This document shows, in pieces, positions 64 through 16,160 of a stretch of DNA of 24,000 bases. The position numbers and the translations under genes are program-made. Location of the stretch: contig JAYTOU010000070.1 of assembly GCA_043747615.1 (NCBI GenBank), positions 1 through 24,000 of the forward strand. Reading direction: 5' to 3'. The stretch's first letter is position 1. The number at the start of each line of letters is the position of its first letter. The stretch comes from Myxococcales bacterium (GTDB lineage: Bacteria > Myxococcota_A > Polyangia > Polyangiales > Polyangiaceae). The notes under the pieces were generated by a model that saw only the letters and a program-made list of their open reading frames with translations, ran no database searches and was not told where the DNA came from.

Positions 64-701
64 TCAGCTCACCGCCTGGTGTCCCAAAGATGTCCCAACG
101 GGCGCATCAAGGGCTGCCATGAACTCCCGTCCGCCACCGGGCGAGAGGTGCGAATAGCGCATCTTCATCTGGATCGTGGAGTGGCCTAGCCATTCCTGAA
201 CCTGACGGAGAGGCGCCCCCGACATCACGAGCTGACTGGCGAACGAGTGCCGGCAGTCGTGCCATCGGATCTTGCGTAGCCCTGCCCTGCGGCATGCGCC
301 CCAGAGCCTTTCGTGCAGCTGGTAGATGCTGAGGGGCTTCCCGTCCGGGTTGCAGAAGACGCGAGGGCCTCTCAGGTGCTTCAGCTCCTTTAACGCCCGT
401 TCTAGCTCGGGGGTCGTTGGAACCTTTCGATCCTTGCCGCTCTTCGTGGGCCCTACGATGCCCAGCGACGACGAACGGCGAATGATGACCTTCTTGTTAG
501 TGAAATCGAGATCGCCCCACTCAGGGCGATCTGCTCCCCTGCCCTGGCGCCCGTCCGGAACGCGAAGAGCAAGAGCGCTCGTTCCTCGATGTTGCGCGCC
601 GCACTGATCGCCAAGGCCGACTCTTCGCTGTTGAAGAAGTCCGTCTTGGAGTCCGGGGAGTGGGAGATCCTCACGGCGGTGCCGGCCTTTCCGAAACTGA
701 A
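64..701 (-). pseudogene. Tyrosine recombinase (phage-type integrase), N-terminally truncated and frameshifted
   Basis: One minus frame reads EWGDLDFTNKKVII...RWHDCRHSFASQLVMSGAPLRQVQEWLGHSTIQMKMRYSHLSPGG...HQAVS, with stop at 64-66. It carries the HxxR box and the catalytic Tyr context. The upstream part (DFFNSEESALAISAARNIEERALLLFAFRTGARAGEQIAL, with the Arg-I motif) is in another frame, switching near 520-527. Homology stops near 690-705, where MFS coding begins, so the N-terminal core-binding domain is absent. Confidence 0.8.
78..98 (+). repeat. Two direct TGTCCCAA motifs 11 bp apart (candidate recombinase arm-type sites)
   Basis: TGTCCCAA at 80-87 and 91-98, inside the integrase 3' coding end and about 60 bp from the att core. 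Confidence 0.35.
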
Positions 702-2180
702 GGTGCCGAGCAAGAGTTTCACCTCGCCGCGCGCGCCGCCATCCTGTCGTTCATCGTCGTGTTCGGCGTCACCAAAGCGCTCACGAACTACCTCGCGGGC
801 CGGCTCTCGGATGCGTATGGGCGCAAGGTAATCTTGGTCGGCGGCTGGCTCGTGGCGTGCCCGGTGCCGTTTCTCCTCATGTGGGCGCCCTCGTGGAGCT
901 GGGTACTCTTCGCGAACGTGCTGCTCGGCATGAGCCAAGGGCTCACGTGGTCCACGACGGTCATCATGAAGATCGACCTCGCGGGGCCGCAGAAGCGCGG
1001 GCTTGCGATGGGCCTGAACGAGTTCGCCGGTTACTTCGCCGTGGCGATGTCCGCGCTCGCGACCGGGACCATTGCCTCGACGTTCGGCCTTCGCCCGCAG
1101 CCGTTCTATTTGGGCGTCGTCTTCGTCACGTTCGGTCTCTTGCTGTCCCTCGTCCTCGTGCGCGAGACGAAGCACCACGTCCACCACGAGGCGAAGCTCG
1201 AAGGAGCCTTGCCACCAGGCGGCGTGCCTTCGCAGCGGCAAGTTTTCGCGCTTACCTCGGTGCGCGACAAGAACCTGTCGAGCGTGAGCCAGGCAGGGCT
1301 CGTCAACAACCTGAACGACGGCATGGCGTGGGGACTTTTCCCGATCTTCTTCGCCGCCTCCGGCATGAGCCTCGCTCAGATCGGGTGGCTCGCCGCGATC
1401 TATCCCGGCGTGTGGGGAATGGGGCAGCTCTTCACTGGAGCGCTCTCCGACAAGATCGGACGCAAGTGGCTCATCGTGACGGGGATGTGGGTACAGGCGA
1501 TCGGCATCGTCGTGACGGTGCTCTCCAAGATGTTCTTGGACTTCGCCGTGGGCGGTGTGCTCCTCGGCCTGGGGACCGCGATGGTGTACCCGACGCTGCT
1601 CGCCGCGATTGGCGATGTCGCTCACCCAACGTGGCGCGCGTCGACGGTCGGCGTGTACCGGCTCTGGCGCGATCTCGGTTACGCGATCGGCGCTCTGCTC
1701 GCCGGTGTCGTCGCCGATGCGCTCGGGCTCCGCGCCGCGATCTGGGCCATCGCTGCGCTCACCTTCGGCTCGGGACTCGTGGCGGCCTTCCGTATGAAAG
1801 AGACGTTGGGGGCACGGCGGACGGGCGCGAAGCTCGTGCCCGAGCCAGCTTGTATCACGGTGGATGATCTGGACTCGCTCATGGGGAAGCGTGAGGCTGT
1901 GTTCGTCGTCGACGTGCGCTCCCCCGAGGAGTTTGCCGCCGCCCATGTGTCGAGCGCGACGAACATCCCGCTGCAGACGCTCGAAGCGAATGCAGGCACT
2001 CTCCCGCTCGACGCGCTCGTGGTCACGGTTTGCGGCAAGGGTGGCGGGCGGTCCGAGAGCGCCGCCAAGTTGCTCCGCCAACGCGGTTTTCAAACAGCGC
2101 TATCGCTATGCGGCGGGACGAACGCCTGGATGACGGCGCATAGCGAGAAAACGACTGGTCTTCTAACGACGCCACCATGA
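660..2180 (+). CDS. MFS transporter fused to a C-terminal rhodanese domain; appears to lack the first transmembrane helix (5'-truncated)
   Basis: Motif A ([10 protein letters not shown]) follows the first visible TM helix, so that helix is TM2; I count 11 TM segments. The C-terminal ~120 aa are rhodanese-like with the active loop CGKGGGR. Recognisable MFS sequence begins around 705 ([16 protein letters not shown]). The GTG at 660 is only the first in-frame start, and it overlaps integrase remnant sequence. Confidence 0.75.
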
Positions 2181-3192
2181 TCTACCTCGACTACAACGCC
2201 ACGACGCCGCTGCTCCCCGAGGTCATCGCCGCGATGGATCCGTATTTGCGCGAGCATTTCGGCAATCCATCGAGCAGTCATGTCTACGGACAGCGGGCGC
2301 GCGGGGCGATCGATGTCGCGCGGTCTCAAGTCGCGGAGCTCCTCGGCTGCGAGCCCGACGAGGTGATCTTCACGTCGGGCGGGACCGAAGCTAACAACCT
2401 CGCGATTCGCGGGGTCGCCGAAGCGAGCGAAGGGAAGCGCCACATCGTCACCTCGACCATCGAGCACCCGGCGACGGCGGCCCCGTGATCGTGCACGCGA
2501 ACAACGAGACCGGGACGATGCAGCCCATCGCCGAGCTCGCCGGTATCGCACGCGAGCGTGGCTGTCTGGTCCACACGGATGCCGCGCAGTCGGTTGGCAA
2601 GGTGCGGACGAAGGTGCGCGAGCTTGGCGTAGACCTGCTCTCCGTCGCCGGGCACAAACTCTACGCGCCGAAGGGTGTCGGTGCGCTGTACGTACGCAGG
2701 GGAACCCCGCTGCGACCGTTCGTTCTTGGAGCCGGGCACGAGCGCGGTCTGCGGCCGGGCACCGAGAACGTGGCTTCGATCGTCGCTCTTGGAGTCGCCT
2801 GCGAGCTTGCCGGGAAGCGTCTCTCCGTATCGGGCGACGCCGTACGCGCTCTCCGCGATCGACTCTGGGCTCGCCTCCTTGCAGTCGTCCCTGGGCTCGC
2901 GTTGAACGGGCACGAGACCGAGCGACTGCCGAACACGTTGAATGTGCGTTTTCCCGGAGTGACCGGGAGCGCGGTGCTCGGCTCGGCGCCCGAGGTTGCC
3001 GCTTCGACGGGCTCGGCGTGCCACGAGGGCGGTCGCGAGAGGGCTTCGTCGGTGTTGCTCGAGATGGGGCTGCGGCCTGATGAAGCCCTCGGATCCGTCC
3101 GTCTCTCTTTGGGGGTGGCGACGACGACGCAGGACGTGGACGACGCTGCCGACGTGCTCACGCGGGGATGGCGAGCATTGGGATCATCCTAA
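2177..3192 (+). pseudogene. NifS/IscS-family cysteine desulfurase or selenocysteine lyase, disrupted by an internal deletion plus frameshift
   Basis: ORF 2177-2488 (YLDYNATTP...[13 protein letters not shown]...TSTIEHPA) and ORF 2485-3192 (VHANNETGT...SVAGHKLYAPKG with the PLP Lys...STGSACHEG with the active Cys) are in different frames. Compared with E. coli IscS recalled from memory, roughly 40 residues between EH(K/P)A and HxNNE are missing, at about 2470-2490. The ATG at 2177 overlaps the MFS stop (ATGA). Confidence 0.75.
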
Positions 3193-3223
3193 TGCGATGA
3201 GTGGACGGCACGTGGATCGTCGC

Positions 3224-4480
3224 TCACTTGCGCAGCGCGCACGTACGAAAGCCGGCCAAGACGTCCCGACGATCCGGTGGGTAGAAGTTGCGCCAGGTAT
3301 TCCGGAGCAGCCGCGCGCGCGTCGCCCAACAACCGCCGCGCAGCACCTTGTGGGGCGTCGCGAACCACGGCTCCGAGTACTCCCGGTAAGGATCGACGAT
3401 GAAGCCCTGATAAGGTCCGAAATCAGTCGCCGTCCACTCCCACGTGTTGCCGATCATCTGTCGGCAGCCGAACGCGCTGTCTCCGGCGGCAAACGCGCCG
3501 ACGTCCACGGGCCCACCGCAGCGGCCATCCAGGTTCGCGTTCGCTTCGGACGGCACGGCCTCACCCCACGGGAAAGGGCGCTTTTCGTCCGTCGACGCAG
3601 CGAGCTCCCACTCCGCCTCCGTCGGCAGTCGGCGCTGTGCCCAACGACAATAGGCTTCCGCCTCGAACCAACACACGTGCACGATCGGCTGGTGCGGCGG
3701 CAGCGGCTCGCGCTTGTCGTAACGGCGCACGTCGAAACCGCCGTCGCCGAGCGGACGCCAGTACACGGGATGGTGTGCGCCGTTTCGCGTGCGCCAGTTC
3801 CACCCGGCATCCGTCCACAGCTCACGCCGAGCGTAGCCCCGTGCCTGGACAAACTTCAGGAACTCCTCGTTGGTGACGGCCGCGCGCGCGATTCGAAACG
3901 TCGGTACGTCGACCGGATGCGCCCACTTCTCGTTGTCGAATACGAACGATTCGCGAGGGGTCGCACCGAGCTGGTACCGGCAACCCCGCACCTCGACGTC
4001 GCCCGGAAGCGCCCCTCCGGCGACGGCGAGCGTAGTGACACCCGCGTGCACGAATGTCGGTGCCGGGTAGGCGAGGGTCTGGCGCGTGTATGTCAAGGCC
4101 TCGTCGTGCATGTCCTCGTGGAACAGCGCGAGTCGATGAAAATAGGGATCTTCAACGTCTCGGTCCGTCTCGCAGCATCGTTCGAAGACCTCGGCCATGT
4201 ACGCGAGGGTGGCCTGACGATCTGGAAGCGTCAGGTCCCAGCGCGTGTCGTGCGGGACGCGAGCGGAGTCGTAGAGCGCGTCCCCATCCGAGCGGATCGG
4301 CGACACACCGCGCGCATGCCGCAGCGCCCATTGTTCTTGGAACCAGGCAACGTGCCCGAGCTCCCAGCGGAGCGGATTGACGATCGCCAGACGGGGCCCG
4401 AGCCATTGCTCGTCGGTGAGGTCGAGCGCCAGGCCAAGCGTCCGCGCCCGCGAGTCCTTCAGGTCATCGATAATTCCCAT
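3224..4480 (-). CDS. senA: EgtB-like sulfoxide/selenoxide synthase (DinB-like plus FGE-sulfatase-type domains); candidate selenoneine synthase SenA
   Basis: N-terminal DinB-like part carries the three-His iron site (WELGHVAWFQE; FHEDMHDE). The C-terminal part is FGE-sulfatase-like (GNTWEWT, RGGCWAT). The SenA call rests on context with SenB-like and SelD genes. I prefer the ATG at 4480 (MGIIDDL) over the GTG at 4507, which would leave 5 bp to the senB start. Confidence 0.75.
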   Translation of the reverse strand: MGIIDDLKDSRARTLGLALDLTDEQWLGPRLAIVNPLRWELGHVAWFQEQWALRHARGVSPIRSDGDALYDSARVPHDTRWDLTLPDRQATLAYMAEVFERCCETDRDVEDPYFHRLALFHEDMHDEALTYTRQTLAYPAPTFVHAGVTTLAVAGGALPGDVEVRGCRYQLGATPRESFVFDNEKWAHPVDVPTFRIARAAVTNEEFLKFVQARGYARRELWTDAGWNWRTRNGAHHPVYWRPLGDGGFDVRRYDKREPLPPHQPIVHVCWFEAEAYCRWAQRRLPTEAEWELAASTDEKRPFPWGEAVPSEANANLDGRCGGPVDVGAFAAGDSAFGCRQMIGNTWEWTATDFGPYQGFIVDPYREYSEPWFATPHKVLRGGCWATRARLLRNTWRNFYPPDRRDVLAGFRTCALRK

Positions 4481-4512
4481 GCGACGCTCTCGCAATCTAC
4501 ACTCCACCGCGC

Positions 4513-5514
4513 ATGAATGTCGTCTTCGTATGCAAGGCCCCGCGGGGCTCGCGCCTGGGGAACCGCATCACCGCGCTTCGCTGGAAGAAGCTGGTGGAGG
4601 AGCTCGGACACCGCGTGGTGATCACCTCGTCCCTCCCCCGCGGCCCGTACGACGTCCTCGTCGCACTGCATGCCCGTCTCGCGGCGGGCGCCGTCGCGTG
4701 GTCGCGCGCGAACCACGCCTCGCGCCCCATCGTCGTCGCCTTGACCGGAACGGACCTCTATCGCGACATTCACCACGACGCCGAGGCGAAGGAATCGCTC
4801 GCGCTCGCGGATCGTCTCATCGTCTTGCACGAGCTTGCGCCTCTCGACGTCCCAAGGCCCTTCCGAAGCAAGACGCGCGTCATTCGTCAATCGGCGCCGC
4901 CCGCGCCACGCCAAACGTCTGGCGGCGCAAAAGAGCGCGACGCCTTCGAGGTCGCATTCGTCGCCCACCTGCGCGCCGAGAAGGATCCCATGCGCGTTGC
5001 CGCCGCCGTTCGCTTGCTGCCGGCGGCGTCGCGCGTGCGCGTTCGGCATGTCGGCCGCGCGCTCAGCGAAGAACTGGACCGGCAGGCAACGAAGGAGACG
5101 AAAACGAACGCGCGGTACGCTTGGCTCGGCGAGGTCTCCCCGGCGCGCGCCCGCCACCTGATCGCGCGGTCGCACGTGCTCGTCCTCACGAGCATCATGG
5201 AGGGCGGGGCGAACGTCCTCGGCGAGGCAATCGTCGCCGGAACACCGCCGATCACGTCGCGCATCCCCGCCGCCGTCGCGGCGCTCGGCGCGAAGTACCC
5301 TGGTTTTTTCCCGGTTGGCGACACGCGAGCGCTCGCGCGCATGCTGTCGCGCGCGGAACGCGAACCTGCGTTCCTCGCCGAGCTACGGCGGCAGACCCGC
5401 GCCCGCCGCCATCTCTTCACGGCGAAGGCGGAGAGAAGCGCATGGCGTTCGCTGCTCGAAGAGCTCGCGCCGCCCGCTCGGGCGCGACGCGGCGAACCTC
5501 ACCCGATAGGATGA
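4513..5514 (+). CDS. senB: GT-B-type glycosyltransferase; candidate selenosugar synthase SenB
   Basis: 333 aa with a C-terminal GT4-like nucleotide-sugar binding stretch (LTSIMEGGANVLGEAIVAGTPPITSRIP). It is divergent from and adjacent to the EgtB-like gene, with SelD nearby. Assignment is by context and fold-level resemblance; no search was run. Confidence 0.65.
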   Translation: MNVVFVCKAPRGSRLGNRITALRWKKLVEELGHRVVITSSLPRGPYDVLVALHARLAAGAVAWSRANHASRPIVVALTGTDLYRDIHHDAEAKESLALADRLIVLHELAPLDVPRPFRSKTRVIRQSAPPAPRQTSGGAKERDAFEVAFVAHLRAEKDPMRVAAAVRLLPAASRVRVRHVGRALSEELDRQATKETKTNARYAWLGEVSPARARHLIARSHVLVLTSIMEGGANVLGEAIVAGTPPITSRIPAAVAALGAKYPGFFPVGDTRALARMLSRAEREPAFLAELRRQTRARRHLFTAKAERSAWRSLLEELAPPARARRGEPHPIG

Positions 5515-5518
5515 TGAG

Positions 5519-6898
5519 ATGAGCAAGCACTACGACGCAATCGTCATCGGCACAGGTCAGGCAGGTCCGTCGCTCGCCGTACGTCTGGCAAGCGCGGGAC
5601 GAAAGACCGCGATCCTCGAGCGAAAGCGGTTCGGCGGCACATGCGTCAACGTCGGGTGCATCCCCAGCAAGACCTTGATCGCCAGCGCGCGCACCGCTCA
5701 TGTCGCCAGGCGCGCCGCGGACTACGGCGTGATCGTCGAAGGCGGGGTCACTGTCGACATGAAACGCGTGAAGGCGCGCAAGGACGCTGTGGTCCAGCGG
5801 TCGAACGAGGGCGTCACGCGCTGGCTCCGGAATACGGCGAACCTCACGGTGATCGAGGGGCACGGCCGATTCGAAGGCCCCCACGTCATCCGCGTGAACG
5901 ACGACGTCCTCGAGGCCCCTCAGGTCTTCATCAACGTCGGTGCGCGCCCGATGGTGCCCGACCTTCCGGGGCTCGACGGGGTGCCGTTTCTCACGAGCTC
6001 CTCGATCATGGATGTCGACTTCGTCCCCGAGCATCTGATCATCATCGGAGGCAGCTACATCGGCCTCGAGTTTGCTCAGATGTATCGCCGCTTCGGCAGT
6101 CGAGTGACGGTGATCGAGAAGGGACCGCGGATCGCGGCGCGCGAGGACGAGGACGTTTCAACCGAGATCAAGAGTATTCTCGAGGCCGAAGAGATCGCGT
6201 TCAAGTTGAACGCGCAGTGCTTGAAGTTCGGCCGGCGCGGAGACGGGGTGGTCGTGTCGGTGAGCTGCGACGGAACGCTCGACGAGATCGCGGGCTCGCA
6301 TCTCCTCGTAGCCGTTGGGCGGGTGCCAAACACCGCCGACCTTGGGCTCGACGCCGCGGACGTCGCCGTGGATGCGCACGGCTTCGTCGTCGTCGACGAC
6401 GAGCTCCGCACGAGCGTCCCCGGGGTATGGGCCCTCGGAGACGCGAACGGTCGCGGCGCGTTCACGCACACGTCTTACAACGACTATGAGATCGTCGCCG
6501 CGAACTTGCTCGATGGTGGCTCACGCCGCGTGAGTGATCGCATCCCGGCCTACGCGCTCTTCGTCGACCCGCCGCTCGGCCGCGCAGGGCTGACCGAGCG
6601 CGACGTGCGCGCCTCCGGCCAGAAAGCGCTGATCGGGAAGATGATGATGGCGCGCGTCGGTCGGGCGCAGGAGCGCGGCGAGACTCTGGGCTTCATGAAA
6701 GTGATCGTCGACGCAGAGAGCCGCAAGATCCTGGGCGCGTCCCTACTCGGGATCGAAGCGGACGAGGTCATCCACGCGCTCCTCGACGTGATGTACGCTG
6801 GCGGCACCTGCGACCTCATCACGCGGGCAATGCACATCCATCCGACGGTCTCGGAGCTGATCCCGACCCTACTCGGCGATCTGAAGCCGCTGGAGTGA
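5519..6898 (+). CDS. Class I FAD-dependent pyridine nucleotide-disulfide oxidoreductase (mercuric/glutathione/lipoamide reductase-like)
   Basis: GTGQAG dinucleotide-binding motif, redox-active GGTCVNVGCIPSK, second Rossmann motif IIGGSYIGLEFA, and C-terminal HPTVSE His-Glu dyad. It has no C-terminal Cys pair and no N-terminal metal-binding domain, so it is not a bona fide MerA. It starts 4 nt after the senB stop, with AGGA 7 nt upstream. Confidence 0.85.
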   Translation: MSKHYDAIVIGTGQAGPSLAVRLASAGRKTAILERKRFGGTCVNVGCIPSKTLIASARTAHVARRAADYGVIVEGGVTVDMKRVKARKDAVVQRSNEGVTRWLRNTANLTVIEGHGRFEGPHVIRVNDDVLEAPQVFINVGARPMVPDLPGLDGVPFLTSSSIMDVDFVPEHLIIIGGSYIGLEFAQMYRRFGSRVTVIEKGPRIAAREDEDVSTEIKSILEAEEIAFKLNAQCLKFGRRGDGVVVSVSCDGTLDEIAGSHLLVAVGRVPNTADLGLDAADVAVDAHGFVVVDDELRTSVPGVWALGDANGRGAFTHTSYNDYEIVAANLLDGGSRRVSDRIPAYALFVDPPLGRAGLTERDVRASGQKALIGKMMMARVGRAQERGETLGFMKVIVDAESRKILGASLLGIEADEVIHALLDVMYAGGTCDLITRAMHIHPTVSELIPTLLGDLKPLE

Positions 6899-6906
6899 TC
6901 GAAATT

Positions 6907-7950
6907 TCAGCGATCGACCACGTGGATGTGGCCGACGCGCCCGGCGGCGAGCGTTCCGATGATCGCCGCGCAGGGTGTTCCGCGGGAGCGCAGCTCGCCA
7001 ATGAGCTTGTCCGCCTCGTCGGGCGAGACGGCGATCAGCAAACCGCCTGAAGTCTGAGCATCGCTGAGGACGAGCTGCGACTCCTTGTCGATCCCGGTCG
7101 CGTACTCGACCGAGTCGCTCAGGAAGCGCCAGTTTGCGTGGGTGCCCCCCGGCGCGATCCCTTCGCGGACATAGGTCCAGGCCGCGTCGATCACGGGCAC
7201 GTCCTCGAGGCGCACGGTCGCGCTGCATCCGCTCGCCCTGACGATGTTGCGCAGGTGGCCGAGGAGACCGAAACCGGTGATGTCGGTGCAGGCGTGCACG
7301 GACACCGTGGCCATCGCCTCTGCTGCCGCGCGGTTCAGCATGCTCATGAGACGGATCGCCTCGCCGATGGCGTGCGCAGCATCGCGATCTTGCTTTGCCG
7401 CGGTGGTCACGATTCCAATGCCGATCGGCTTCGTGAGGACGAGGACGTCACCCGGAAGACCACCGGCGTTCGAGGCGATCTTCTTGGGATGCACCATGCC
7501 GGTCACTGCGAGCCCGTAGATGGGTTCGTCGGTCTTGATCGTGTGACCACCGACGATGTCGATCCCGGCCTCCCGTGCCTTCTCCGCGCCGCCGCGCAAA
7601 ATCTCGCCGAGCACCGACACGTCGAGCTCGGATTCCGGGAAGCCGACGAGGTTGAGCGCGGCGATGGGCCAGCCGCCCATGGCGTAAACGTCGCTGAGCG
7701 CGTTCGCCGCGGCCACTGCCCCGAACTCGTACGGATCGTCCACGACGGGCGTGAAGAAATCCGTGGTCAAGACGAGAGCTCGCTCGTCATCGATGCGATA
7801 GACCGCGGCGTCATCGCCGGTCGCGCTCCCGACGAGCACGTTCGGATCGGTGACGGGCGGTAGTCTGCTGAGCAGCGGAAAGAGGTAGCCGGGCGGATGT
7901 TTTGCGGCGCAACCAGCGCGCTTGGCAATCTGCGTGAGGCGAACGGACAT
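6907..7950 (-). CDS. selD: Selenide, water dikinase (selenophosphate synthetase), Cys-type; SenC role in a sen cluster
   Basis: N-terminal glycine-rich loop AGCAAK, with the Cys encoded by TGC rather than TGA. AIR-synthase-like core (DDAAVY, DFFTP, GGHTI, TDITGFGLLGH). AGGAGA Shine-Dalgarno sequence 5-6 nt upstream of the ATG. Confidence 0.9.
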   Translation of the reverse strand: MSVRLTQIAKRAGCAAKHPPGYLFPLLSRLPPVTDPNVLVGSATGDDAAVYRIDDERALVLTTDFFTPVVDDPYEFGAVAAANALSDVYAMGGWPIAALNLVGFPESELDVSVLGEILRGGAEKAREAGIDIVGGHTIKTDEPIYGLAVTGMVHPKKIASNAGGLPGDVLVLTKPIGIGIVTTAAKQDRDAAHAIGEAIRLMSMLNRAAAEAMATVSVHACTDITGFGLLGHLRNIVRASGCSATVRLEDVPVIDAAWTYVREGIAPGGTHANWRFLSDSVEYATGIDKESQLVLSDAQTSGGLLIAVSPDEADKLIGELRSRGTPCAAIIGTLAAGRVGHIHVVDR

Positions 7951-7977
7951 CGCATTCTCCTGTGGGTGATCAGTAAG

Positions 7978-9018
7978 TCATGCCATGGACGCGAGGCCAG
8001 CAGCGGTCGCTACGAGCCAGACGCCAAGGGCCAAGGCCACGGCGACGCGAGGCCGTGACTCGCGTGCGAGGACGAAGAGAGAGGGCAGGTTCACGATCGG
8101 CCCCGCGACCACGAACGCAACGGCGACGCCGATCGGCGCGCCCGCGGCGAGCAGCAGGAGCGCGACCGGGACTTCGAAGAACGTGGGCAGAGCAACGAGC
8201 ATTCCGATGAGAGCGACCACGGTGATCGCGAAGACCGTACCTCCACGCGTGAGCATGGCGACGTGCGGAAGAAGAAGGCCTGAAACGAGCACGCCGGCGA
8301 TGATGAGCGGCACGGTCACGACGGTGAGGTACCCAACGCTCCTCGCGAAGCGGACGAGCAGGGCGCCGAGCGTCATGTCCTCGTCGGCATCGACCTCGCA
8401 CGCGACGCTGCGCGCGGGTGACACGTCTTTCTCCATGGCCCGGCCGATGCCCGCAGAGAGCCCGAGAACGATGACGAGCGCCGCCACGACGCGAACCGCA
8501 GCGACCCGCACGGGGAGGAGCGCGAAGCTCAACACGATGGCGGCGATGTTCAGGCCGGGCGACGCCAACATGACTGCGAGTGAAGGACCGAGGCGCGCAC
8601 CGCGCTCGTAGAGGCCCGTGAAGACCGGGGTGACACAGCAACAGCACAACATGAGCGGCGCGCCTGCGAGCGCCCCCATGATCGTCGGCCGCCCTCCGCG
8701 TGCCCCGAGCCAGCGCTTCACCCATGACGAGGGAACCGCCGCGCGAACCGCTGCGCCGACGAGGATCCCGAAGACGAGCGCTGGCCAGATTTTACCGAAG
8801 TAGAACAGCGTCGTTGCCACGACGCCTCCGTCAACGAGCGCCGACGTTGAAACGCCCAGCTTTCCGGACTCACGTACGCGCCCGAGCACGCGCAGCGAGC
8901 CGCCCCATTTGTAATAAAAGAGTGCCGACACGATCATCGCGAGGATGAAAGCGCCGCCGAATTGCGTGCGCGCGGAGCCTCCGGATTTGCCCGCCATTGC
9001 AGCCGAGGTCGTCGTCAT
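7978..9018 (-). CDS. Polytopic permease of the DUF318/ArsP-type predicted-permease family with a CCCC motif
   Basis: About 10 hydrophobic helices in two halves, split by an acidic loop (EVDADEDM). The motif GAPLMLCCCCVTPVF sits where family members carry a vicinal Cys pair before a Pro. It ends 27 bp upstream of the selD start on the same strand. Start is uncertain: ATG 9018, ATG 8997 or TTG 9054. Confidence 0.7.
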   Translation of the reverse strand: MTTTSAAMAGKSGGSARTQFGGAFILAMIVSALFYYKWGGSLRVLGRVRESGKLGVSTSALVDGGVVATTLFYFGKIWPALVFGILVGAAVRAAVPSSWVKRWLGARGGRPTIMGALAGAPLMLCCCCVTPVFTGLYERGARLGPSLAVMLASPGLNIAAIVLSFALLPVRVAAVRVVAALVIVLGLSAGIGRAMEKDVSPARSVACEVDADEDMTLGALLVRFARSVGYLTVVTVPLIIAGVLVSGLLLPHVAMLTRGGTVFAITVVALIGMLVALPTFFEVPVALLLLAAGAPIGVAVAFVVAGPIVNLPSLFVLARESRPRVAVALALGVWLVATAAGLASMA

Positions 9019-9103
9019 CACCGGAAGATGAGCTTGTCTCGCTTCGCGACGCAACCGCTGTCTGGCGGGCTCGCTCCGATTCGGCCGCGCTCGGGCGAGC
9101 GCG

Positions 9104-10048
9104 TTAGACCGCGCGCGACGGCTGCATCCAGGGCTTCGAAAGGTATCGGTCCCATGAGTCGGGCAATAGCGTCACGACAGGACCAGTAATGCCGTCCCGC
9201 GCTGCGATCCTGAGCGCGACAACGACCGCGGTCCCCGCCGAGCCGCCGACGAAGAGCCCCTCTTCGCGAACGAGGCGATGGACCATCGCGAAGCTATCGG
9301 TGTCAGAAACGCTTTCGGCGCTGTCGATCACGCTGCGGTCGAGGATCGCGGGTGGCTTGCTCGTGCCGATTCCTTCGACCTCATAGGCGGCGTCGGGGCC
9401 AACGATCCCATCCGCGGCCCACCGAGCGAGACCAGAGCCGACGGGGTCCGCAAGGACGATTTGGACGTTCAGTACGTGACGTTTCAGGAACCGGCCAACC
9501 CCGGTGATGGTGCCCCCCGTGCCGGCTCCAGCGACGAACGCTCCGATCCGAGCGCCCGTCTGTTCGAGGAGCTCGGGGCCCGTGGTCTCCTCGTGGGCGC
9601 GGACGTTCACGGGATTGCGGAACTGGTCGGTGAGGAACCACCCCTCTTCATCTGCGAGGCGACGGGCAACGTTCTGGAAATTCTCAGGACTATCCGGCGG
9701 CGCGTTCGGAGTGATCACGACGCGCGCGCCGAGGGCCGTAAGCGCAGCTCGTTTGTCGACGGACATTTTCTCCGGCAGTACGCAAACGAGCTTGTAGCCT
9801 CGCACGGCGGCGACGAGCGCGAGCCCCATTCCCGTGTTTCCGGCCGTCGCCTCGATCAGGGTCGCGCCGGGCTTCAGGAGATTGCGTCGTTCGGCATCGT
9901 CGACGATGGCGAGGGCGATCCGGTCTTTCACGCTTCCTCCCGGATTTAGATGCTCGCACTTCACGAGGATCGAAACCGGGAGGCCATGCCCGATGTGTCG
10001 CAGCCGCACGAGCGGCGTGTGCCCAATGTGATCGAGAATCGTCGACAT
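9104..10048 (-). CDS. PLP-dependent cysteine synthase / cystathionine beta-synthase family enzyme (CysK/CysM-like)
   Basis: IGHTPLVRL; NPGGSVKDR with the PLP Lys; GNTGMGLA; GAGTGGTITG phosphate-binding loop. It lies first on the minus strand before the permease and selD. The ATG at 10048 is preferred; the ORF extends to a TTG at 10096. Confidence 0.85.
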   Translation of the reverse strand: MSTILDHIGHTPLVRLRHIGHGLPVSILVKCEHLNPGGSVKDRIALAIVDDAERRNLLKPGATLIEATAGNTGMGLALVAAVRGYKLVCVLPEKMSVDKRAALTALGARVVITPNAPPDSPENFQNVARRLADEEGWFLTDQFRNPVNVRAHEETTGPELLEQTGARIGAFVAGAGTGGTITGVGRFLKRHVLNVQIVLADPVGSGLARWAADGIVGPDAAYEVEGIGTSKPPAILDRSVIDSAESVSDTDSFAMVHRLVREEGLFVGGSAGTAVVVALRIAARDGITGPVVTLLPDSWDRYLSKPWMQPSRAV

Positions 10049-10294
10049 TGGGCGGAGCTTAGCTTGCCGCGACGCGACTGGAGGGCTCGTCGTCAAGGAG
10101 GCGTCGCAGAAAAGCGCTATGGAGAAGGACCATCGCGACCATCCCGAAATAACGCGACGGGGTCCTCTGGAAATCCGCGTCGTTCTGTACCTGCTCGCGG
10201 TTCCTTGGGAGGGCCGTCGCGACGGCGTCGCCGTCTACCCTCGAACGTTGGAATGCCGATCCCGTTTACCGTCCCCAATGGTATGTGACGAGCA

Positions 10295-11270
10295 ATGGCG
10301 TCGCGCACGATCCGCCCGAACCTCGCGAAGCTCTCGGGCTCGGTGGCCTACCGCGCGATCCTCGGCGAGGTCAGCGCGCTGCTCGAAAGCGCACGGCGAG
10401 CGGCCGCCCGCGCGGTGAACACCGTCATGACGACCACGTACTGGGAAATCGGTCGCCGGCTCGTTGAGCACGAGCAGCGCGGGAGGGCGCGGGCCGCGTA
10501 CGGCGCTGCGCTCCTGCGCCGGCTATCGAAGGATCTGGCAGGACGCTTCGGTCGCGGATTCTCGGAGCGCAACCTCGAACAGATGCAGCGCTTCTACCTG
10601 ACGTGGCCCATTTCGCAGACGCTGTCTTCGAAATTCCAGGAAGGACCGGCACTCGCGCCGCGATCCAAGATTTCGCAGACGCTGTCTGCGAAGTCCCAAG
10701 ACCACATTGCGCCAAGCTTCCCTCTGCCGTGGTCCCACTATGTTCGCCTCCTCGCTGTCAGGAACGAGAACGCCCGGGCGTTCTACGAGTACGAGGCTCT
10801 CCGCGGTGGTTGGACGGCCCGCCAGCTCGACCGACATCTCAAAGCTCGAGACGTTCCTACTTGAGCTCGGCGGCGATTTCACCTTCGTTGGTCGCCAGCG
10901 CCGATTGCGCGTCGGAGATGAGTGGTTTCGGATCGACCTGCTTTTCTTTCACCGGCGCCTGCGATGCCTCGTGGTGATCGACCTCAAGCTGGGGAAGTTC
11001 AGCCACGCCGACGCGGGCCAGATGCACCTATACTTGAACTACGCCCGGGAGCACTGGATGGTGTCCGGCGAGAATCCTCCGGTCGGGATCATCCTCTGCG
11101 CCGAGAAGGACGAGGCGGTCGTCCGATACGCGCTCGAAGGCTTACCCAACAAGGTGCTGGCTGCGGCGTATCGGACAACGTTGCCTGCAGAAGAAGTTCT
11201 CGCCGCCCAGCTTCGAAAATCCGCGAGGCTCCTGACAACCCGGACTCCACGCCGCTCGACACCCCGCTGA
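10295..11270 (+). pseudogene. DUF1016/YhcG-type PDDEXK nuclease, split by an internal deletion and frameshift
   Basis: ORF 10295-10864 has the N-terminal domain (YWEIGRRLVEHEQ, GFSERNLEQMQRFY, WSHYVRLL). A second frame up to 11270 has the nuclease core (FLLELGGDFTFVGRQRRLRVGDEWFRIDLLFFHRRLRCLVVIDLKLGKF). The junction is near 10830-10845. Tens of residues normally between the two parts appear to be missing. Confidence 0.7.
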
Positions 11271-11287
11271 CGATGGGGCGAGTTGGG

Positions 11288-11359
11288 TGTCCCATGGGTG
11301 TCCCAAGCCTCGCGGAAACGGACGGAAACAGACGGCAGCCAACGGGAACGTTTGGGACA
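11288..11359. repeat. Cluster of TGTCCCAA-type motifs near the right island end
   Basis: TGTCCCAt at 11288-11295 and TGTCCCAA at 11299-11306, again 11 bp apart. An inverted copy TTGGGACA lies at 11352-11359, and a further inverted copy at 11822-11829 outside the island. Confidence 0.35.
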
Positions 11360-11437
11360 CGGCATCTTGCGTTAACACGGTGACTTAGGGGCCAAGACCG
11401 CGTCACTACTTGGTTATCTCAAGATGCCGATCTCAAT

Positions 11438-11458
11438 TTCAATTCCCGTTGGGGTCAC
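11438..11458 (+). repeat. Right copy of the 21-bp direct repeat (displaced tRNA 3' fragment, candidate att site)
   Basis: 21/21 identity to 1-21. The upstream bases (tcaat) cannot form the T-stem and the copy is followed by tg rather than ca, so it is not a second tRNA gene. Confidence 0.7.
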
Positions 11459-11859
11459 TGGTTTTCTCTGTATCATTCCGCGCGGATGTAACTTTTCACG
11501 GCGGATTTTGGACAGCTCGGTGGACAACCCCACCGATTCGCAGAGGTCGTCGGGGAGCGCCGGCCGGCGTCGACGGTTCCGTCCTCGATTGATCCATCGG
11601 CGAGAAGGGCATCCGTCGCGGCCGCGTCGCTGTTCGGTGATACGGCCGCGTCGTCGCCGCAGCCGGTAGCTTGCGCGTTCACGACGTGCGACGACGAATC
11701 GGGCGACGCGGGAGCCAGTATTGGCGGCTCCTCAACGACCACGTGTGCGCCGTGAACACCCAGCGAACCATTGGCGCCATTCCGCGCAGTAGAAAAGTTC
11801 CGACGATGAACTCGCCGCTAGTTGGGACAGCACGGGCACCCGCTGTTAGCGTTGCCGCC

Positions 11860-12141
11860 ATGCGAACCGTTGCCCCCATTGCGTTGGCCATCCTTGGACT
11901 GATGACGTACGGATGCAGCTCAACAAGCAGCACGCCGAAAACGCCGCCCACATGCGCGCAGCTTCAAACGCAGATCAATGCGTGTACGAATATCTCCCAG
12001 GCCGCAAAGGATTCACTAGGTCCTTTCTGCGCGACGGCATCCGACGCATGTCGGTCATGTCTTGACGGACAGCTTTGTGGAGCCACCGAGCAGTGTGACC
12101 CGCAATGCCACAAGATCGCTGATGCGGGCGGGGGTGGCTGA
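11860..12141 (+). CDS. Small cysteine-rich putative lipoprotein (hypothetical)
   Basis: MRTVAPIALAILGLMTYGC is a signal peptide with a lipobox-like Cys. The mature part has 8 further Cys (CAQLQTQINAC...CRSCLDGQLCGATEQCDPQC). An alternative ATG lies at 11806. Confidence 0.5.
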   Translation: MRTVAPIALAILGLMTYGCSSTSSTPKTPPTCAQLQTQINACTNISQAAKDSLGPFCATASDACRSCLDGQLCGATEQCDPQCHKIADAGGGG

Positions 12142-12468
12142 GACGCGCGAGGCCTTTCTCCGTCTCGCGGTCCACCTGCTTCGTGATGTGAAAGCGCCCA
12201 TGCGTGAAGTCGAGATCGCCAGCGGTTAGCGCCGCGATCTCGTTCGAGCGCGCTGCGAAGTAGACGGCCACGGCGTACACGCCGCGTCGGCGGGCGGGCA
12301 CTTCTTCGCATTCGAGAAGCTGTAGAAACTCGTCGGGGTCCAGGGGTCCAGGATGACGCGACTTCGACCGTCCCCATTGTCGGGCCCGCGCACTTTCGTT
12401 ACCGGGTTGACGGTGCGGTGAGCACGCGCAGGCGTCGCTCTTCGAGTTGCAGGCCTCGTCGAAGGCAC
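12142..12468 (-). pseudogene. Remnant of a second, unrelated tyrosine integrase (middle fragment only)
   Basis: Minus frames read NPVTKVRGPDNGDGRSRVILDP and then, in another frame, DEFLQLLECEEVPARRRGVYAVAVYFAARSNEIAALTAGDLDFTHGRFHITKQVDRETEKG (Arg-I region). The catalytic C-terminal half is missing, because homology ends where the lipoprotein gene ends. Confidence 0.6.
12336..12351. repeat. Perfect 8-bp tandem duplication (gggtccag x2) causing the frameshift in the integrase remnant
   Basis: Removing one copy joins ...RVILDP to DEFLQLLE... in a single frame. Confidence 0.8.
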
Positions 12469-12512
12469 ACGTCAGATCGCCTCAAGCGGGAGGTCATTCC
12501 CACTTTCACCAG

Positions 12513-12553
12513 GTAACGTTACTTCGGCAAATGCTTGTTCCATTATTATGGAA
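12513..12553. promoter_or_regulatory. AT-rich promoter/operator region of the ars operon with two palindromes
   Basis: Perfect 10-bp palindrome GTAACGTTAC (12513-12522) and inverted repeat TTCCAT-tatt-ATGGAA (12538-12553), 43-83 bp upstream of the arsR GTG. This is a locally AT-rich patch in a GC-rich background. No -35/-10 boxes could be assigned confidently. Confidence 0.45.
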
Positions 12554-12595
12554 TCATAGCTTGCGGAGTTGCTTCGAGGATACTAGAAGTAGGTT

Positions 12596-12904
12596 GTGAC
12601 CTCGAAGCTGGATCGCCGCGCCGAGCAGCTGAGTGCCCTGGGCCACTCCGTTCGGCTCAAGATCCTCCGATTCGTCGTGCAAGCGGGCGTCGAAGGCTCC
12701 GCAGCGGGCGACATCCAGGCTCACGTCGAGCTGCCAGCGTCCACGTTGAGTCATCACCTGAAGCGGCTGGTCGACGCCGGGGTGCTCTCCACCCGATCCG
12801 AGGGAACCTTCCACTTCTACGCCGCCGACTACACCGCCCTCCGCGCTCTCACCGACTACCTTTGGGAAGACTGCTGCAAGCGCGGCAAGTCCGGCTGCTG
12901 CTGA
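12596..12904 (+). CDS. arsR: ArsR/SmtB-family metalloregulator with C-terminal cysteine pairs
   Basis: Winged-helix signature LSALGHSVRLKILRFV...ELPASTLSHHLKRLVDAGVL. It lacks the CVC site in helix 3 and has C-terminal CC-x6-CC (EDCCKRGKSGCC). The GTG at 12596 is the first possible start after in-frame stops. Confidence 0.85.
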   Translation: MTSKLDRRAEQLSALGHSVRLKILRFVVQAGVEGSAAGDIQAHVELPASTLSHHLKRLVDAGVLSTRSEGTFHFYAADYTALRALTDYLWEDCCKRGKSGCC

Positions 12905-12920
12905 GCAAAGCCTTTTTTTT
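12893..12920 (+). terminator. Possible weak terminator/attenuator between arsR and arsM
   Basis: GGCTGCT..AGC-AA-AGCC imperfect stem overlapping the arsR stop, followed by a T8 run (12913-12920). Judged by eye only. Confidence 0.3.
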
Positions 12921-12976
12921 GCGCTTAATGTTCGAGTATTTTGGAAGTAGTTAACCCCACACACGAGGAGTCGATC

Positions 12977-13894
12977 ATGAAGAACCCTAGCGTTCAAAAA
13001 TCCGAGAAGACCTGCTGCGCCCCAAGCTGCTGCGAGGGCGACAACGCCGCGGCGAAGGCCGAGACCGCAAAGGTCGACGACGCCGTTCGTGAGACGGTCA
13101 AGGAGCGCTACGGCCAGGCGGTCGCGGCAGTCATGAAAGGCTCGAAGCCTTCGTGCTGTGGGTCGTCTGCAGCGCCGGGCATCCGCGGCACGGACCCGAT
13201 CACGCGCAACCTCTACGACGCGGAGCAGGCGGGCGGCGTGCCCGATGACGCCTTGCTCGCCTCCTTCGGCTGCGGCAACCCCACCGCCCTCGCCAATCTG
13301 AACCCCGGCGAGACCGTGCTCGACCTCGGCTCAGGGGGCGGCATCGACGTGCTTCTGTCGGCCAAGCGGGTCGGCCCCACCGGCAAGGCGTACGGGCTCG
13401 ACATGACCGACGAGATGCTCGACCTCGCCATGAAGAACAAGGCGAAGGCGGGCGCGGCGAACGTGGAGTTCTTGAAAGGACACATCGAGGCAATCCCGCT
13501 ACCGGCCGCCTCGGTGGACGTGATCATCTCCAACTGCGTCATCAACCTCTCCACCGACAAGGACAAGGTGCTCGGCGAAGCCTTCCGCGTGCTGCGCTCG
13601 GGGGGTAGGTTCGCCGTCTCCGACATCGTGGTTCGCCGCGAGCTTCCCGAACCGGTGAGGAAGTCGATGGAGCTGTGGAGCGGGTGCATCGCAGGGGCGC
13701 TTCTGGAAAAGGAGTACGTCGCCAAGTTGAAGGCCGCCGGGTTCATCGACATCGAGGTCGAGCCGACCCGCATCTATACGAAGGAGGACACCGCGGAGAT
13801 GACGTCGTCCTGCTGCGGCGAAGAGGCCGAGACGGCCCTCGAGGCCCTGGACGGCGCCGTCATGAGCGCCTTCATCCGCGCGACGAAGCCATGA
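12977..13894 (+). CDS. arsM: Arsenite S-adenosylmethionine methyltransferase
   Basis: SAM motif [12 protein letters not shown]. Conserved Cys contexts FGCGNP, SNCVINL and WSGCIAGA, plus an N-terminal Cys-rich stretch (CCAPSCC, PSCCG). GAGGAG Shine-Dalgarno sequence upstream of the ATG at 12977. Confidence 0.9.
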
Positions 13895-14907
13895 GCACGC
13901 GCACCAAGGTCGGCATCAACGGGTTCGGCCGTATGGGTCGGCTCGCGCTTCGAGCGGCATGGCGTTGGCCCGACTTCGAGTTCGTCCACATCAACGAGCT
14001 GAAGGGCGGGCCCAAAGTCGGCGCGCATCTCCTCGCGTTCGACTCGGTGCACGGTCGATGGGACCAAGAGGTCGTCACCGCGGCGGACGCCATCGCCATC
14101 GCGGGGAAGGCCATCCCCTTCACCGGATACGCCACGCCGGCAGAGGTGCCGTGGAAGGAGCACGGGGTCGAGATCGTCCTCGAGTGCTCTGGGAAGTTCA
14201 GGACCCCGGCGCTCATCGCTCCCTACTTCGCGGTCGGAGTGAAGAAGGTCATCGTCGCCGCCCCCGTCAAGGAGGGCGCGCTCAACGTCGTCGTCGGGGT
14301 GAACGATCACCTCTACGACCCGGAGAAGCACCACTTGCTCACGGCGGCTTCCTGCACGACCAACTGCCTTGCTCCCGTGGTGAAGGTCATTCACGAGGGC
14401 ATCGGCATCCGCCACGGTGTGATCACCACCATCCACGACATGACGAACACCCAGACGGTCGTTGATGCGCCCCACGAGGATCTTCGGCGAGCACGGGCCA
14501 GCAGCCTCTCCCTCATTCCGACGAGCACCGGGTCGGCGACGGCGATCTCGTTGATCTACCCCGAGCTGAAGGGAAAGTTGAACGGCCTCGCCGTGCGGGT
14601 GCCCCTCTTGAATGCGTCGCTCACCGATTGCGTCTTCGAGGTCTCTCGGCCGACGACGACGGACGAAGTGAACGCGCTCCTCAAGACTGCCGCGGAGGGG
14701 CCGCTGAAGGGCATCCTGGGCTATGAAGAGCGCCCGCTGGTTTCGGTGGACTACAAGGACGATACGCGATCGGCGATCATCGACGCCCCATCGACCATGG
14801 TGGTGGACGACACGAGCGTGAAGATCCTCGCCTGGTATGACAACGAGATCGGCTACGTGCACCGCATGATGGAGCTCGCCCGCACGGTTGCCCAGAGCCT
14901 TCGGTGA
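13891..14907 (+). CDS. Glyceraldehyde-3-phosphate dehydrogenase (ars-operon type, partner of ArsJ)
   Basis: [12 protein letters not shown]-binding motif and active site SCTTNCLAP. The start overlaps the arsM stop (ATGA). Confidence 0.9.
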
Positions 14908-16160
14908 GCTCGTTGAGCGCCATCCGCAACTACAGCCTCGTGACCGCCGCCTACTGGGCGTTCACGTTGACGGACGGCGCGCTGCGGATGCTCGTCCTCT
15001 TGCATTTCCACGAGCTGGGCTACACGCCGGTCCAGCTCGCGTTCCTGTTTCTCTTCTACGAGCTCTTCGGCGTCGTCACCAACTTGCTGGGCGGCTGGAT
15101 CGCCTCGCGGATGGGTCTGCGTGTGACTCTCCTTGGCGGGCTCGCCCTCCAGGTGGTCTCGCTCGTGCTCCTCGGCATGGTGAACCCTGCGTGGCCGAAG
15201 CTCACGTCCGTCGGCTACGTCATGAGCGCCCAGTCGCTTTCGGGCATCGCCAAGGACCTCACGAAGATGAGCGCCAAGAGCACGACCAAGCTCCTGGTAC
15301 CCGAAACCAACGAGTCGTCGCTCTTCAAATGGGTGGCAATCCTCACGGGCTCGAAGAACGCGCTCAAGGGCGTGGGATTTTTTCTTGGCGGTCTCCTGCT
15401 CACGGCATGGGGCTACCGGCACGCGCTCTTCGGGATGGCCGCGGCTCTCTTCATCGTCCTCGCCGGCTCCTTCTTTTCCCTCCCGCGCGGGCTGGGGAAG
15501 TCGAAGTCCAAGAGTAAATTTAAGGGGCTTCTGTCGAAGACGCGCGAGGTGAACATCCTCTCGGCTGCGCGGTTCTTCCTCTTCGGCGCGAGGGACATCT
15601 GGTTCGTCGTTGGCGTGCCCGTCTTCTTGTCAGAGAACCTCGGCTGGGGGTTCGCCGAGATCGGCACCTTCCTAGCTGTCTGGGTGATTGGGTATGGGGT
15701 CATCCAGTCGGGCGCCCCGCTCCTCATTGGCCGGTGGACCGGTGGCCGAGCGCCCCAAGGGCGAACCGCCCAGGTCCTCGCCTTCGTCCTCGCGGGCGTC
15801 ACAGCGATCGTCGCCGCCGGGATCGTCGCGGGCTACGCGCCGGTAGTCGTCATCCTGGTCGGCCTGGGCATCTTCGGCGCCGTCTTCGCGGTCAACTCCT
15901 CCGTCCACTCGTACTTGATCCTTGCGTACTCGGACGGAGACAAGGTGGCGACGAACGTGGGCTTCTATTACATGGCCAACGCCGGGGGCCGCCTCGTAGG
16001 GACGCTTCTGTCGGGCGTGATGTTTCAAGTTGCCGGGGTCACGGGTTGCCTATGGACCTCGGTGGCGTTCGCAGCGATGGCGGGGGTTGTCTCTCTCGGC
16101 CTGCCGAAGAAGGAGTCCTCGACGTTGATGACGGAGATGAAAACCGAGGGGGCGGATTGA
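14904..16160 (+). CDS. arsJ: MFS permease ArsJ (organoarsenical efflux; 1-arseno-3-phosphoglycerate exporter)
   Basis: ArsJ-like N-terminus ([37 protein letters not shown]) and a 12-TM MFS layout. The GTG start overlaps the gapdh stop (GTGA). Confidence 0.85.

Follow-up and report, generated by a model that had tools for sequence, protein, structure and literature searches.

A flavoprotein disulfide reductase gene coupled to senB in a Myxococcales selenoneine cluster: a candidate reductase for the oxidised product or an intermediate

Among the major redox buffers of low molecular weight (glutathione, mycothione, trypanothione, coenzyme A), most have a flavoprotein reductase of their own. The last two-electron reduction in the biosyntheses of ergothioneine and selenoneine is left to "cellular reductants", and no cognate reductase for either compound in producer organisms was found in the searchable literature. 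The locus described here raises the question of what a flavoprotein reductase may do among selenoneine genes. In the window, by which we mean the whole stretch of 24,000 nucleotides analysed (contig JAYTOU010000070.1 from a Myxococcales bacterium of the family Polyangiaceae; G+C about 65%), a gene for a class I flavoprotein disulfide reductase (FDR; 5519..6898, + strand) lies between senB and selD of a selenoneine (sen) cluster. The evidence given below makes it probable that FDR is functionally tied to the selenoneine pathway. More tentatively, we propose from sequence and gene context that it would be an accessory reductase acting on the oxidised selenoneine product or on an oxidised intermediate.

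Judged by profiles and motifs, the window protein (459 aa) is a class I FDR with all catalytic motifs intact and a member of the family NF004992 (PRK06370.1-4). It matches the Pfam domains Pyr_redox_2 (E 6.5e-58), Pyr_redox PF00070 (E 1.3e-20) and Pyr_redox_dim (E 5.2e-24), and it scores 758.7 bits against NF004992 (cutoff 629, E 1.6e-228), with residues 1-458 aligned on positions 1-458 of the 459 in the profile. Since this match spans the profile from end to end, the gene and its start are real; a chance open reading frame (ORF) or a wrong start is thereby ruled out. The features of the class are all found, on the + strand: the FAD Rossmann fold with its GxGxxG motif (GTGQAG, residues 11-16, 5549..5566), the redox-active CxxxxC disulfide (C42-VNVG-C47, 5642..5659), which aligns with the active-site cysteines of RclA in 6KGY, the central NAD(P)H domain with its binding motif GGSYIGLE (residues 177-184, 6047..6070), and the C-terminal dimerisation domain with HPxxxE. 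The last of these motifs, identified by reading and alignment, is HPTVSE (residues 441-446, 6839..6856) and provides the His-Glu acid-base dyad of the dimer interface domain. The strand after GGSYIGLE ends in ...VTVIE200, like that of NADH-preferring relatives, which may point to the same preference here. An earlier note on this DNA, made from the sequence alone, had described a class I CxxxxC FAD/NAD(P)H oxidoreductase that lacks the C-terminal Cys pair and the N-terminal metal-binding domain of the mercuric reductase MerA. The Pfam and NCBIfam matches and the motifs agree with the former statement, and the latter also holds: FDR begins straight at the FAD fold with no N-terminal extension, and thus has no metal-binding domain there, and C431 is its last cysteine, so that no C-terminal pair can be formed.

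Several more specific identities were considered and rejected. Against the MerA model TIGR02053 the protein scores 337.9 bits (cutoff 454.45), and it is without the NmerA domain and the C-terminal Cys pair. The score is 343.8 bits against the RclA model NF040477 (cutoff 740) and 320.2 bits against the model of hypothiocyanous acid (HOSCN) reductase, NF041853 (cutoff 650). Glutathione reductase and mycothione reductase are rejected in the same way (NF004776, 278 bits for a cutoff of 480; NF005884, 300 bits for a cutoff of 501), as is dihydrolipoyl dehydrogenase (TIGR01350, 364.4 bits for a cutoff of 408.8); no 2-oxoacid dehydrogenase E1 or E2 gene was found among the ORFs annotated in the window.

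How closely is this gene bound to its neighbours? The senB ORF (4513..5514, + strand) encodes the selenosugar synthase, a GT-B glycosyltransferase (TIGR04348, 351.7 bits, cutoff 300), and ends with a TGA stop codon at 5512-5514; the FDR ATG follows at 5519, after a gap of 4 nt (TGAG). A Shine-Dalgarno-like AGGA lies within the 3' end of senB (5508..5511, + strand), 7 nt before this ATG. Direct reading of the sequence therefore bears out the earlier statement that FDR starts 4 nt past the senB stop with an AGGA of its own, and FDR is probably co-transcribed with senB and translationally coupled to it. A scan of 3100-8100 on both strands found no promoter or terminator, a result that is uninformative for an organism with 66% GC. 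On the other side, selD (senC; 6907..7950, - strand), which encodes selenophosphate synthetase (TIGR00476, 392.3 bits, cutoff 125), is convergent with FDR, with 8 nt between the two stop codons. The gene for selenoneine synthase, senA (3224..4480, - strand; DinB_2 and FGE-sulfatase domains; NF041186, 488.6 bits, cutoff 420), is divergent from senB-FDR. SenA, SenB and SelD/SenC thus all score above the curated cutoffs, inside 3224-7950. The divergent intergenic region between the start codons of senA and senB is just 32 nt long (4481..4512), so both promoters must overlap coding sequence. This head-to-head layout of senA and senB is kept in the Myxococcales loci L007-L009, L014, L018, L024, L171 and L173.

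The arrangement is found again among the closest relatives of the window FDR. The gene for P0002 (94% identity) has the layout of the window, senB->FDR<-selD. In the case of P0007 (75% identity, L167/L168), FDR is followed by selD after a gap of 9 nt and is convergent with senB; the same genes occur here in another order, and thus the link between FDR and sen genes survives rearrangement. For P0003 (84% identity, L004), the next gene is egtD (EgtD, TIGR03438, 332 bits). In L132, one of 80 metagenome loci examined (65% identity), FDR heads an operon and overlaps by 4 nt with the gene of an EgtB/OvoA-like sulfoxide synthase, the order in 8741-13790 being FDR, sulfoxide synthase, egtD and a ProV/ProW-type ATP-binding cassette (ABC) transporter. 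The sulfoxide synthase of L132 scores 245-264 bits against each of the EgtB, OvoA and SenA models, below the cutoffs of all three alike, and the ABC transporter is similar to betaine-type ergothioneine transporters.

Linkage was also surveyed with SenB as the anchor, using one genome per GTDB species and the best 80 of at least 594 matches, those nearest to the window SenB. An FDR (42-50% identity) lies beside sen genes in 10 of these 80 loci; it is present in 7 of the 8 Myxococcales-type loci and in at least 3 from Pyrinomonadaceae/Blastocatellia, and in none elsewhere among the 80. In Myxococcales, FDR follows senB (L007, L008, L024 and, outside this sample, L171) or senA (L009, L014, L034 and, again outside it, L173) with gaps of about 20-36 nt, or lies 2.8 kb downstream of senB (L018). 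In Pyrinomonadaceae/Blastocatellia the order is FDR->senA->senB(->arsP) in L046 and L038, and FDR->egtB-like->senA->senB in L041. FDR is on the same strand as its sen or egt neighbour, usually with gaps of less than 40 nt or with overlaps (up to 134 nt, in L004); the exceptions are L018 and L041, where the distance is 1.4-2.8 kb. For these FDRs NF004992 is the best match, at 473-554 bits and thus below its cutoff of 629, and neighbour-joining trees (BLOSUM62 distances, without support values) place those of Myxococcales and of Pyrinomonadaceae as two sister clades to the canonical family. Over all these loci, FDR adjoins sen or egt genes in three FDR clades, with two or more phyla and five or more distinct gene orders represented.

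Several other features of these loci were observed. In L041 (385-5698), a pair of paralogous DinB_2/FGE-sulfatase genes lies in tandem order (1849-3186 and 3191-4570) between FDR and senB, which suggests a single operon for an EgtB-like enzyme and SenA; a weak SelD-like fragment is present at the contig edge, just upstream of FDR. The sen-linked FDR genes of L008 (10969-12304) and L038 (7120-8465) are broken over two reading frames, and either are assembly errors or are decaying. Within flanks of up to 10 kb, selD was found in 15 and egtD in 9 of the 80 SenB loci, and senA is adjacent in 63; the "three-gene cluster" in this sample is often only senA-senB. In 10 loci of Binatia and "Deltaproteobacteria" metagenome-assembled genomes (L011, L012, L016, L025, L029, L035, L045, L057, L074 and L085), a gene about 20 nt from senA or senB encodes a protein of about 445 aa that is predicted to be a multi-pass membrane protein.

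The frequency of the association can be compared with that of other genes and with control DNA. Within 5 kb of senA or senB only one conserved neighbour, SelD, is more frequent than FDR, which is found in 11 of 82 loci (SelD in 15 and EgtD in 7). About 11 matches to FDR homologues occur in 0.94 Mb of sen flanks, where the rate in 0.65 Mb of control flanks predicts about 1.4. This excess over the control rate is about eight-fold, with a Poisson P of about 4e-7 that is uncorrected for shared ancestry; because the SenB loci share ancestry, the number of independent linkage events is nearer five to seven. In the reverse test, which used four Myxococcales-type FDRs picked without regard to gene context, two directly follow senB or senA (P0246 and P0316).

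A number of results weigh against a tie between FDR and the pathway, or limit it. The other two FDRs of the reverse test (P0264 and P0344) are unlinked and lie near urease and AhpC/thioredoxin-type genes, and sen-linked and unlinked Myxococcales-type FDRs are interleaved in the neighbour-joining tree (no bootstrap). Since the tree is interleaved and only two of four are linked, a sen-dedicated paralogue within the Myxococcales clade is unsupported; the gene seems to be a single orthologous reductase, often but not always housed in the sen cluster. About 70 of the 80 SenB loci have no FDR nearby, including all those of Burkholderiales, Binatia and Planctomycetota, and thus FDR is not essential to the pathway. 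The SenB loci are, moreover, phylogenetically dependent and biased toward relatives of the window, and many contigs are short. Among the closer relatives of the window FDR, those at 80%, 78%, 77% and 74% identity have no sen or egt gene in the accessible DNA, two of the four being on contigs of only 2.9 and 4.3 kb. No senB is present in any of the 80 metagenome loci in which the homologue has 62-69% identity. The closest complete sen cluster in GTDB genomes, that of the Polyangiaceae locus L006 (SelD 81%, SenA 72% and SenB 63% identical), has the accessory genes for the MFS-rhodanese, NifS and CysK proteins described below, yet its senB adjoins selD without FDR. Finally, the NF004992 family as a whole is very large, mostly unlinked to sen genes and not sen-specific: the homologue search gave at least 8000 matches, the best 120 of which are nearly all 459 aa long with identity of at least 71%, many of them from Burkholderiales. 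Clustering of ORFs within 4 kb at 82 loci of the canonical family revealed no conserved neighbour, none being present in more than 9 loci, and most of the clusters in this analysis are spurious high-GC ORFs.

The idea of the earlier note that FDR may supply a missing redox step of the sen pathway, and the co-occurrence that it proposed to look for, are therefore upheld in part. Co-occurrence of FDR with senA and senB is enriched, as the survey and the control flanks show, but the subfamily is not dedicated to sen genes. As for the place of FDR in the sen pathway, its close relatives are linked to sen genes or egtD, but this does not extend to the 62-69% identical homologues or to L006. The unlinked Myxococcales-type FDRs (L172, L175/L176) are found among urease accessory, P-II or ammonium-transporter genes, with genes of the AhpC/thioredoxin family 1-2 kb away.

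What FDR would act on, and its physiological role, we infer from the enzyme class, the intact motifs, the coupling to senB and the recurrent linkage to sen and egt genes. A homodimer of FDR with FAD would take two electrons from NAD(P)H, and these would pass from FAD to the C42/C47 disulfide, giving a dithiol. This dithiol, aided by the H441/E446 dyad, would reduce a small oxidised chalcogen substrate. The likeliest substrate may be the selenenic acid that selenoxide elimination of the SenA product leaves behind, or the selenoneine diselenide or selenenyl-sulfide formed in air; selenoneine is a diselenide in neutral aerobic solution (PMC8868364). FDR would thus supply the final two-electron step, which is the job of dithiothreitol (DTT) in vitro, and would recycle the antioxidant. 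The gene contexts bear on this proposal: in most FDR-containing loci selD is missing from the flanks and senA/senB or egtB/egtD are adjacent, and two canonical FDRs (L004 and L132) are coupled to egt genes without any selenium gene. The scarcity of selD near FDR and the couplings to egt genes alone favour a step shared by the histidine-betaine pathways of sulfur and of selenium. Such a step would be the reduction of a sulfenic or selenenic acid, or of the product disulfide or diselenide, and it is favoured here over the supply of selenide.

An alternative possibility is that FDR reduces selenite-thiol adducts (selenotrisulfides, among them GS-Se-SG), perselenides or Se(0) to HSe- for SelD/SenC. 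Supply of selenide was the first of two roles suggested in the earlier note, the second being reduction of the selenenic acid or diselenide form of the product. Glutathione reductase and thioredoxin reductase are able to reduce selenodiglutathione and selenite, the window FDR abuts selD, and candidate selenium-handling genes (MFS-rhodanese, NifS-like, CysK-like and permease) are nearby. The coupling in L167/L168, where selD follows the 75% identical FDR after 9 nt on the same strand, fits this role at least as well as reduction of the product, and the SelD-like fragment upstream of the L041 FDR, although weak, agrees with it. However, no selD was detected in L007, L008, L009 and L018 (10-kb flanks), L171, L173, L046 or L038; FDR is coupled to egtD or to an egtB-like gene with no selenium gene in L004 and L132; and L006 has selD and the full accessory set for selenium handling but no FDR. 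We therefore regard selenide supply as improbable, while noting that sequence cannot decide between it and reduction of the product, and that the genomic pattern, which leans toward the latter, discriminates only weakly. About equally improbable, in our estimate, is that FDR keeps the SenB product (SeGlcNAc) as a selenol for the O2-dependent SenA by reducing the selenosugar diselenide. It is as a diselenide that the SenB product was isolated, and all assays of the pathway, including the aerobic ones of SenA, contain DTT; in addition, FDR comes immediately after senB (the window, L166, L007, L008, L024 and L171) or senA (L009, L014, L034 and L173). This would leave unexplained the FDR-egtD and FDR-egtB-like-egtD arrangements without senB, and most sen clusters have no such enzyme nearby.

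FDR may also have no role in the pathway and be a general oxidative- or electrophile-stress enzyme (RclA/Har-like or another low-molecular-weight disulfide reductase) that by chance lies in the sen cluster or hitch-hikes with it. The huge and conserved family, with thousands of 459-aa proteins of about 70% identity and no conserved context, speaks for this explanation, as do the interleaving of linked and unlinked FDRs in the trees, the absence of FDR from L006 and the AhpC/thioredoxin-type genes near the unlinked Myxococcales copies. Against it speak the recurrence of the adjacency across three clades, two or more phyla and five or more gene orders, the co-directional and usually tightly spaced genes and the about eight-fold excess over control flanks. 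We consider it unlikely, although less so than either of the two selenium-directed alternatives. By far the least probable is a mercuric or metalloid reductase serving the neighbouring metalloid-resistance genes. An arsR-arsM-gapdh-arsJ operon is indeed present at 12596-16160, and Myxococcales homologues of FDR are automatically labelled "mercuric reductase" by NCBI; but FDR has neither NmerA nor the C-terminal Cys pair, its TIGR02053 score is 338 for a cutoff of 454, and it is coupled to senB, whereas the ars operon is 5.7 kb off, with selD, the permease, cysK and the split DUF1016 gene lying in between.

The remaining genes around the sen cluster include several that may handle selenium. Upstream, on the + strand, are a major facilitator superfamily (MFS) transporter with a fused C-terminal rhodanese domain (660..2180; Pfam MFS_1 and Rhodanese), which has a 71% identical homologue in L006, and a disrupted gene for a NifS/IscS-like cysteine (selenocysteine) desulfurase (2177..3192). 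The latter is split into two ORFs (2177-2488 and 2485-3192) by an out-of-frame deletion that, by comparison with the unbroken homologue in L006, has removed about 38 codons. The identical lesion is present in the independent assemblies L001 and L002, and the gene is thus probably a real pseudogene. Downstream of selD, on the - strand, are an ArsP_1-family permease (7978..8997; Pfam) and an accessory CysK/CBS-like pyridoxal 5'-phosphate (PLP) enzyme (9104..10048; profile matches), which is found in L006 too. The ArsP_1-family permease recurs beside sen genes in unrelated lineages (the window, L046 at 9457-10548, L067, L075 and L069) and comes after senB in L046, L067 and L075; it may serve to transport selenium or selenoneine. 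Further on, overlapping DUF1016_N (10295-10864) and YhcG_C (10806-11270) ORFs on the + strand appear to be the two parts of a single PDDEXK-type nuclease gene that a frameshift has split. The arsenic operon (12596..16160, + strand) consists of arsR and the genes for an arsenite methyltransferase (arsM; NF008823, 352 bits), an ArsJ-associated glyceraldehyde-3-phosphate dehydrogenase (GAPDH; NF033735, 562 bits) and ArsJ (NF033734, 566 bits). It is complete and begins 2.5 kb past the sen accessory genes, so that selenium and arsenic functions lie side by side.

How much of this is new? The fold, the class and the named family were already known. What appears to be new is the recurrent embedding of this type of FDR, in multiple lineages, in selenoneine and ergothioneine clusters, which implies a cognate reductase; the window would then represent a four-gene variant of the sen cluster, and an enzyme class already known would have a possible new substrate. 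The literature search, with subscription-only papers outside its scope, found no reductase in sen clusters and no "ergothioneine reductase", and the remark of the earlier note that no dedicated reductase belongs to the described three-gene pathway agrees with the openly accessible sen literature. It is conceivable, and we put it forward with more reserve than the role proposed above for FDR itself, that PRK06370-type flavoproteins whose genes adjoin senA/senB or egtB/egtD form the first group of bacterial reductases dedicated to selenoneine and ergothioneine. Driven by NAD(P)H, they would complete the biosynthesis through reduction of a selenenic or sulfenic acid intermediate and would recycle the oxidised antioxidant. 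If so, selenoneine and ergothioneine would gain a cognate reductase, as glutathione, mycothione and trypanothione have theirs, and a first function would be assigned to part of a large family of "FAD-containing oxidoreductases" that are often mislabelled as mercuric reductase or E3. A genetic tie of FDR to the pathway would provide a testable enzyme for the final reduction and explain how the air-sensitive selenol stays reduced, and heterologous production of selenoneine could be improved. If the link is merely circumstantial, FDR is an ordinary stress-related flavoprotein.

With its own family, the NF004992 "FAD-containing oxidoreductase", the window FDR shares a length of 459 aa and its motifs; numerous proteins of Burkholderiales and Casimicrobiaceae are 71-73% identical to it. 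The family has no assigned substrate and most members have no sen or egt linkage, whereas the window FDR and a few close relatives are within sen or egt clusters. MerA has the same fold and CxxxxC motif; FDR differs from it in lacking NmerA and the C-terminal Cys pair, in retaining the His-Glu dyad motif and in scoring below the model cutoff. The nearest solved and characterised relatives are RclA of E. coli (6KGY/6KYY, 266 bits) and the Har or S. aureus MerA-type enzymes (8AJJ/8AJK, 231-234 bits), which align with FDR over the full length and have in common with it CxxxxC and the HPxxSE dyad, as well as the ...REDxD segment that follows the NAD(P)H fold. RclA and Har-type enzymes use NAD(P)H to reduce HOSCN, a small sulfenyl-type electrophile (PMC9335216, PMC9483559), with near-diffusion-limited efficiency (PMC9335216). 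RclA is without a segment of about 18 residues that the window FDR carries after the active-site helix, and its gene context is rclBC rather than sen genes.

In mammals, the selenocysteine (Sec)-containing thioredoxin reductase (TrxR), also a class I FDR, reduces selenoneine diselenide and ergothioneine disulfide directly with NADPH, and this is the only direct enzymatic recycling found in the openly accessible literature (PMC8868364). Mammalian TrxR depends for this activity on a C-terminal Sec-containing redox centre. Unlike TrxR, the window FDR is bacterial, lacks both a C-terminal redox centre and an in-frame UGA, and is encoded in a biosynthetic cluster. The described cluster of this kind is senA-senB-senC of Variovorax paradoxus, which has SenA, SenB and SelD/SenC in common with the window; the pathway described there includes no reductase, and DTT gives the reducing equivalents in vitro. 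The cluster in the window, by comparison, has FDR placed between senB and selD and a divergent senA, and its core is flanked by additional transporter and PLP-enzyme genes.

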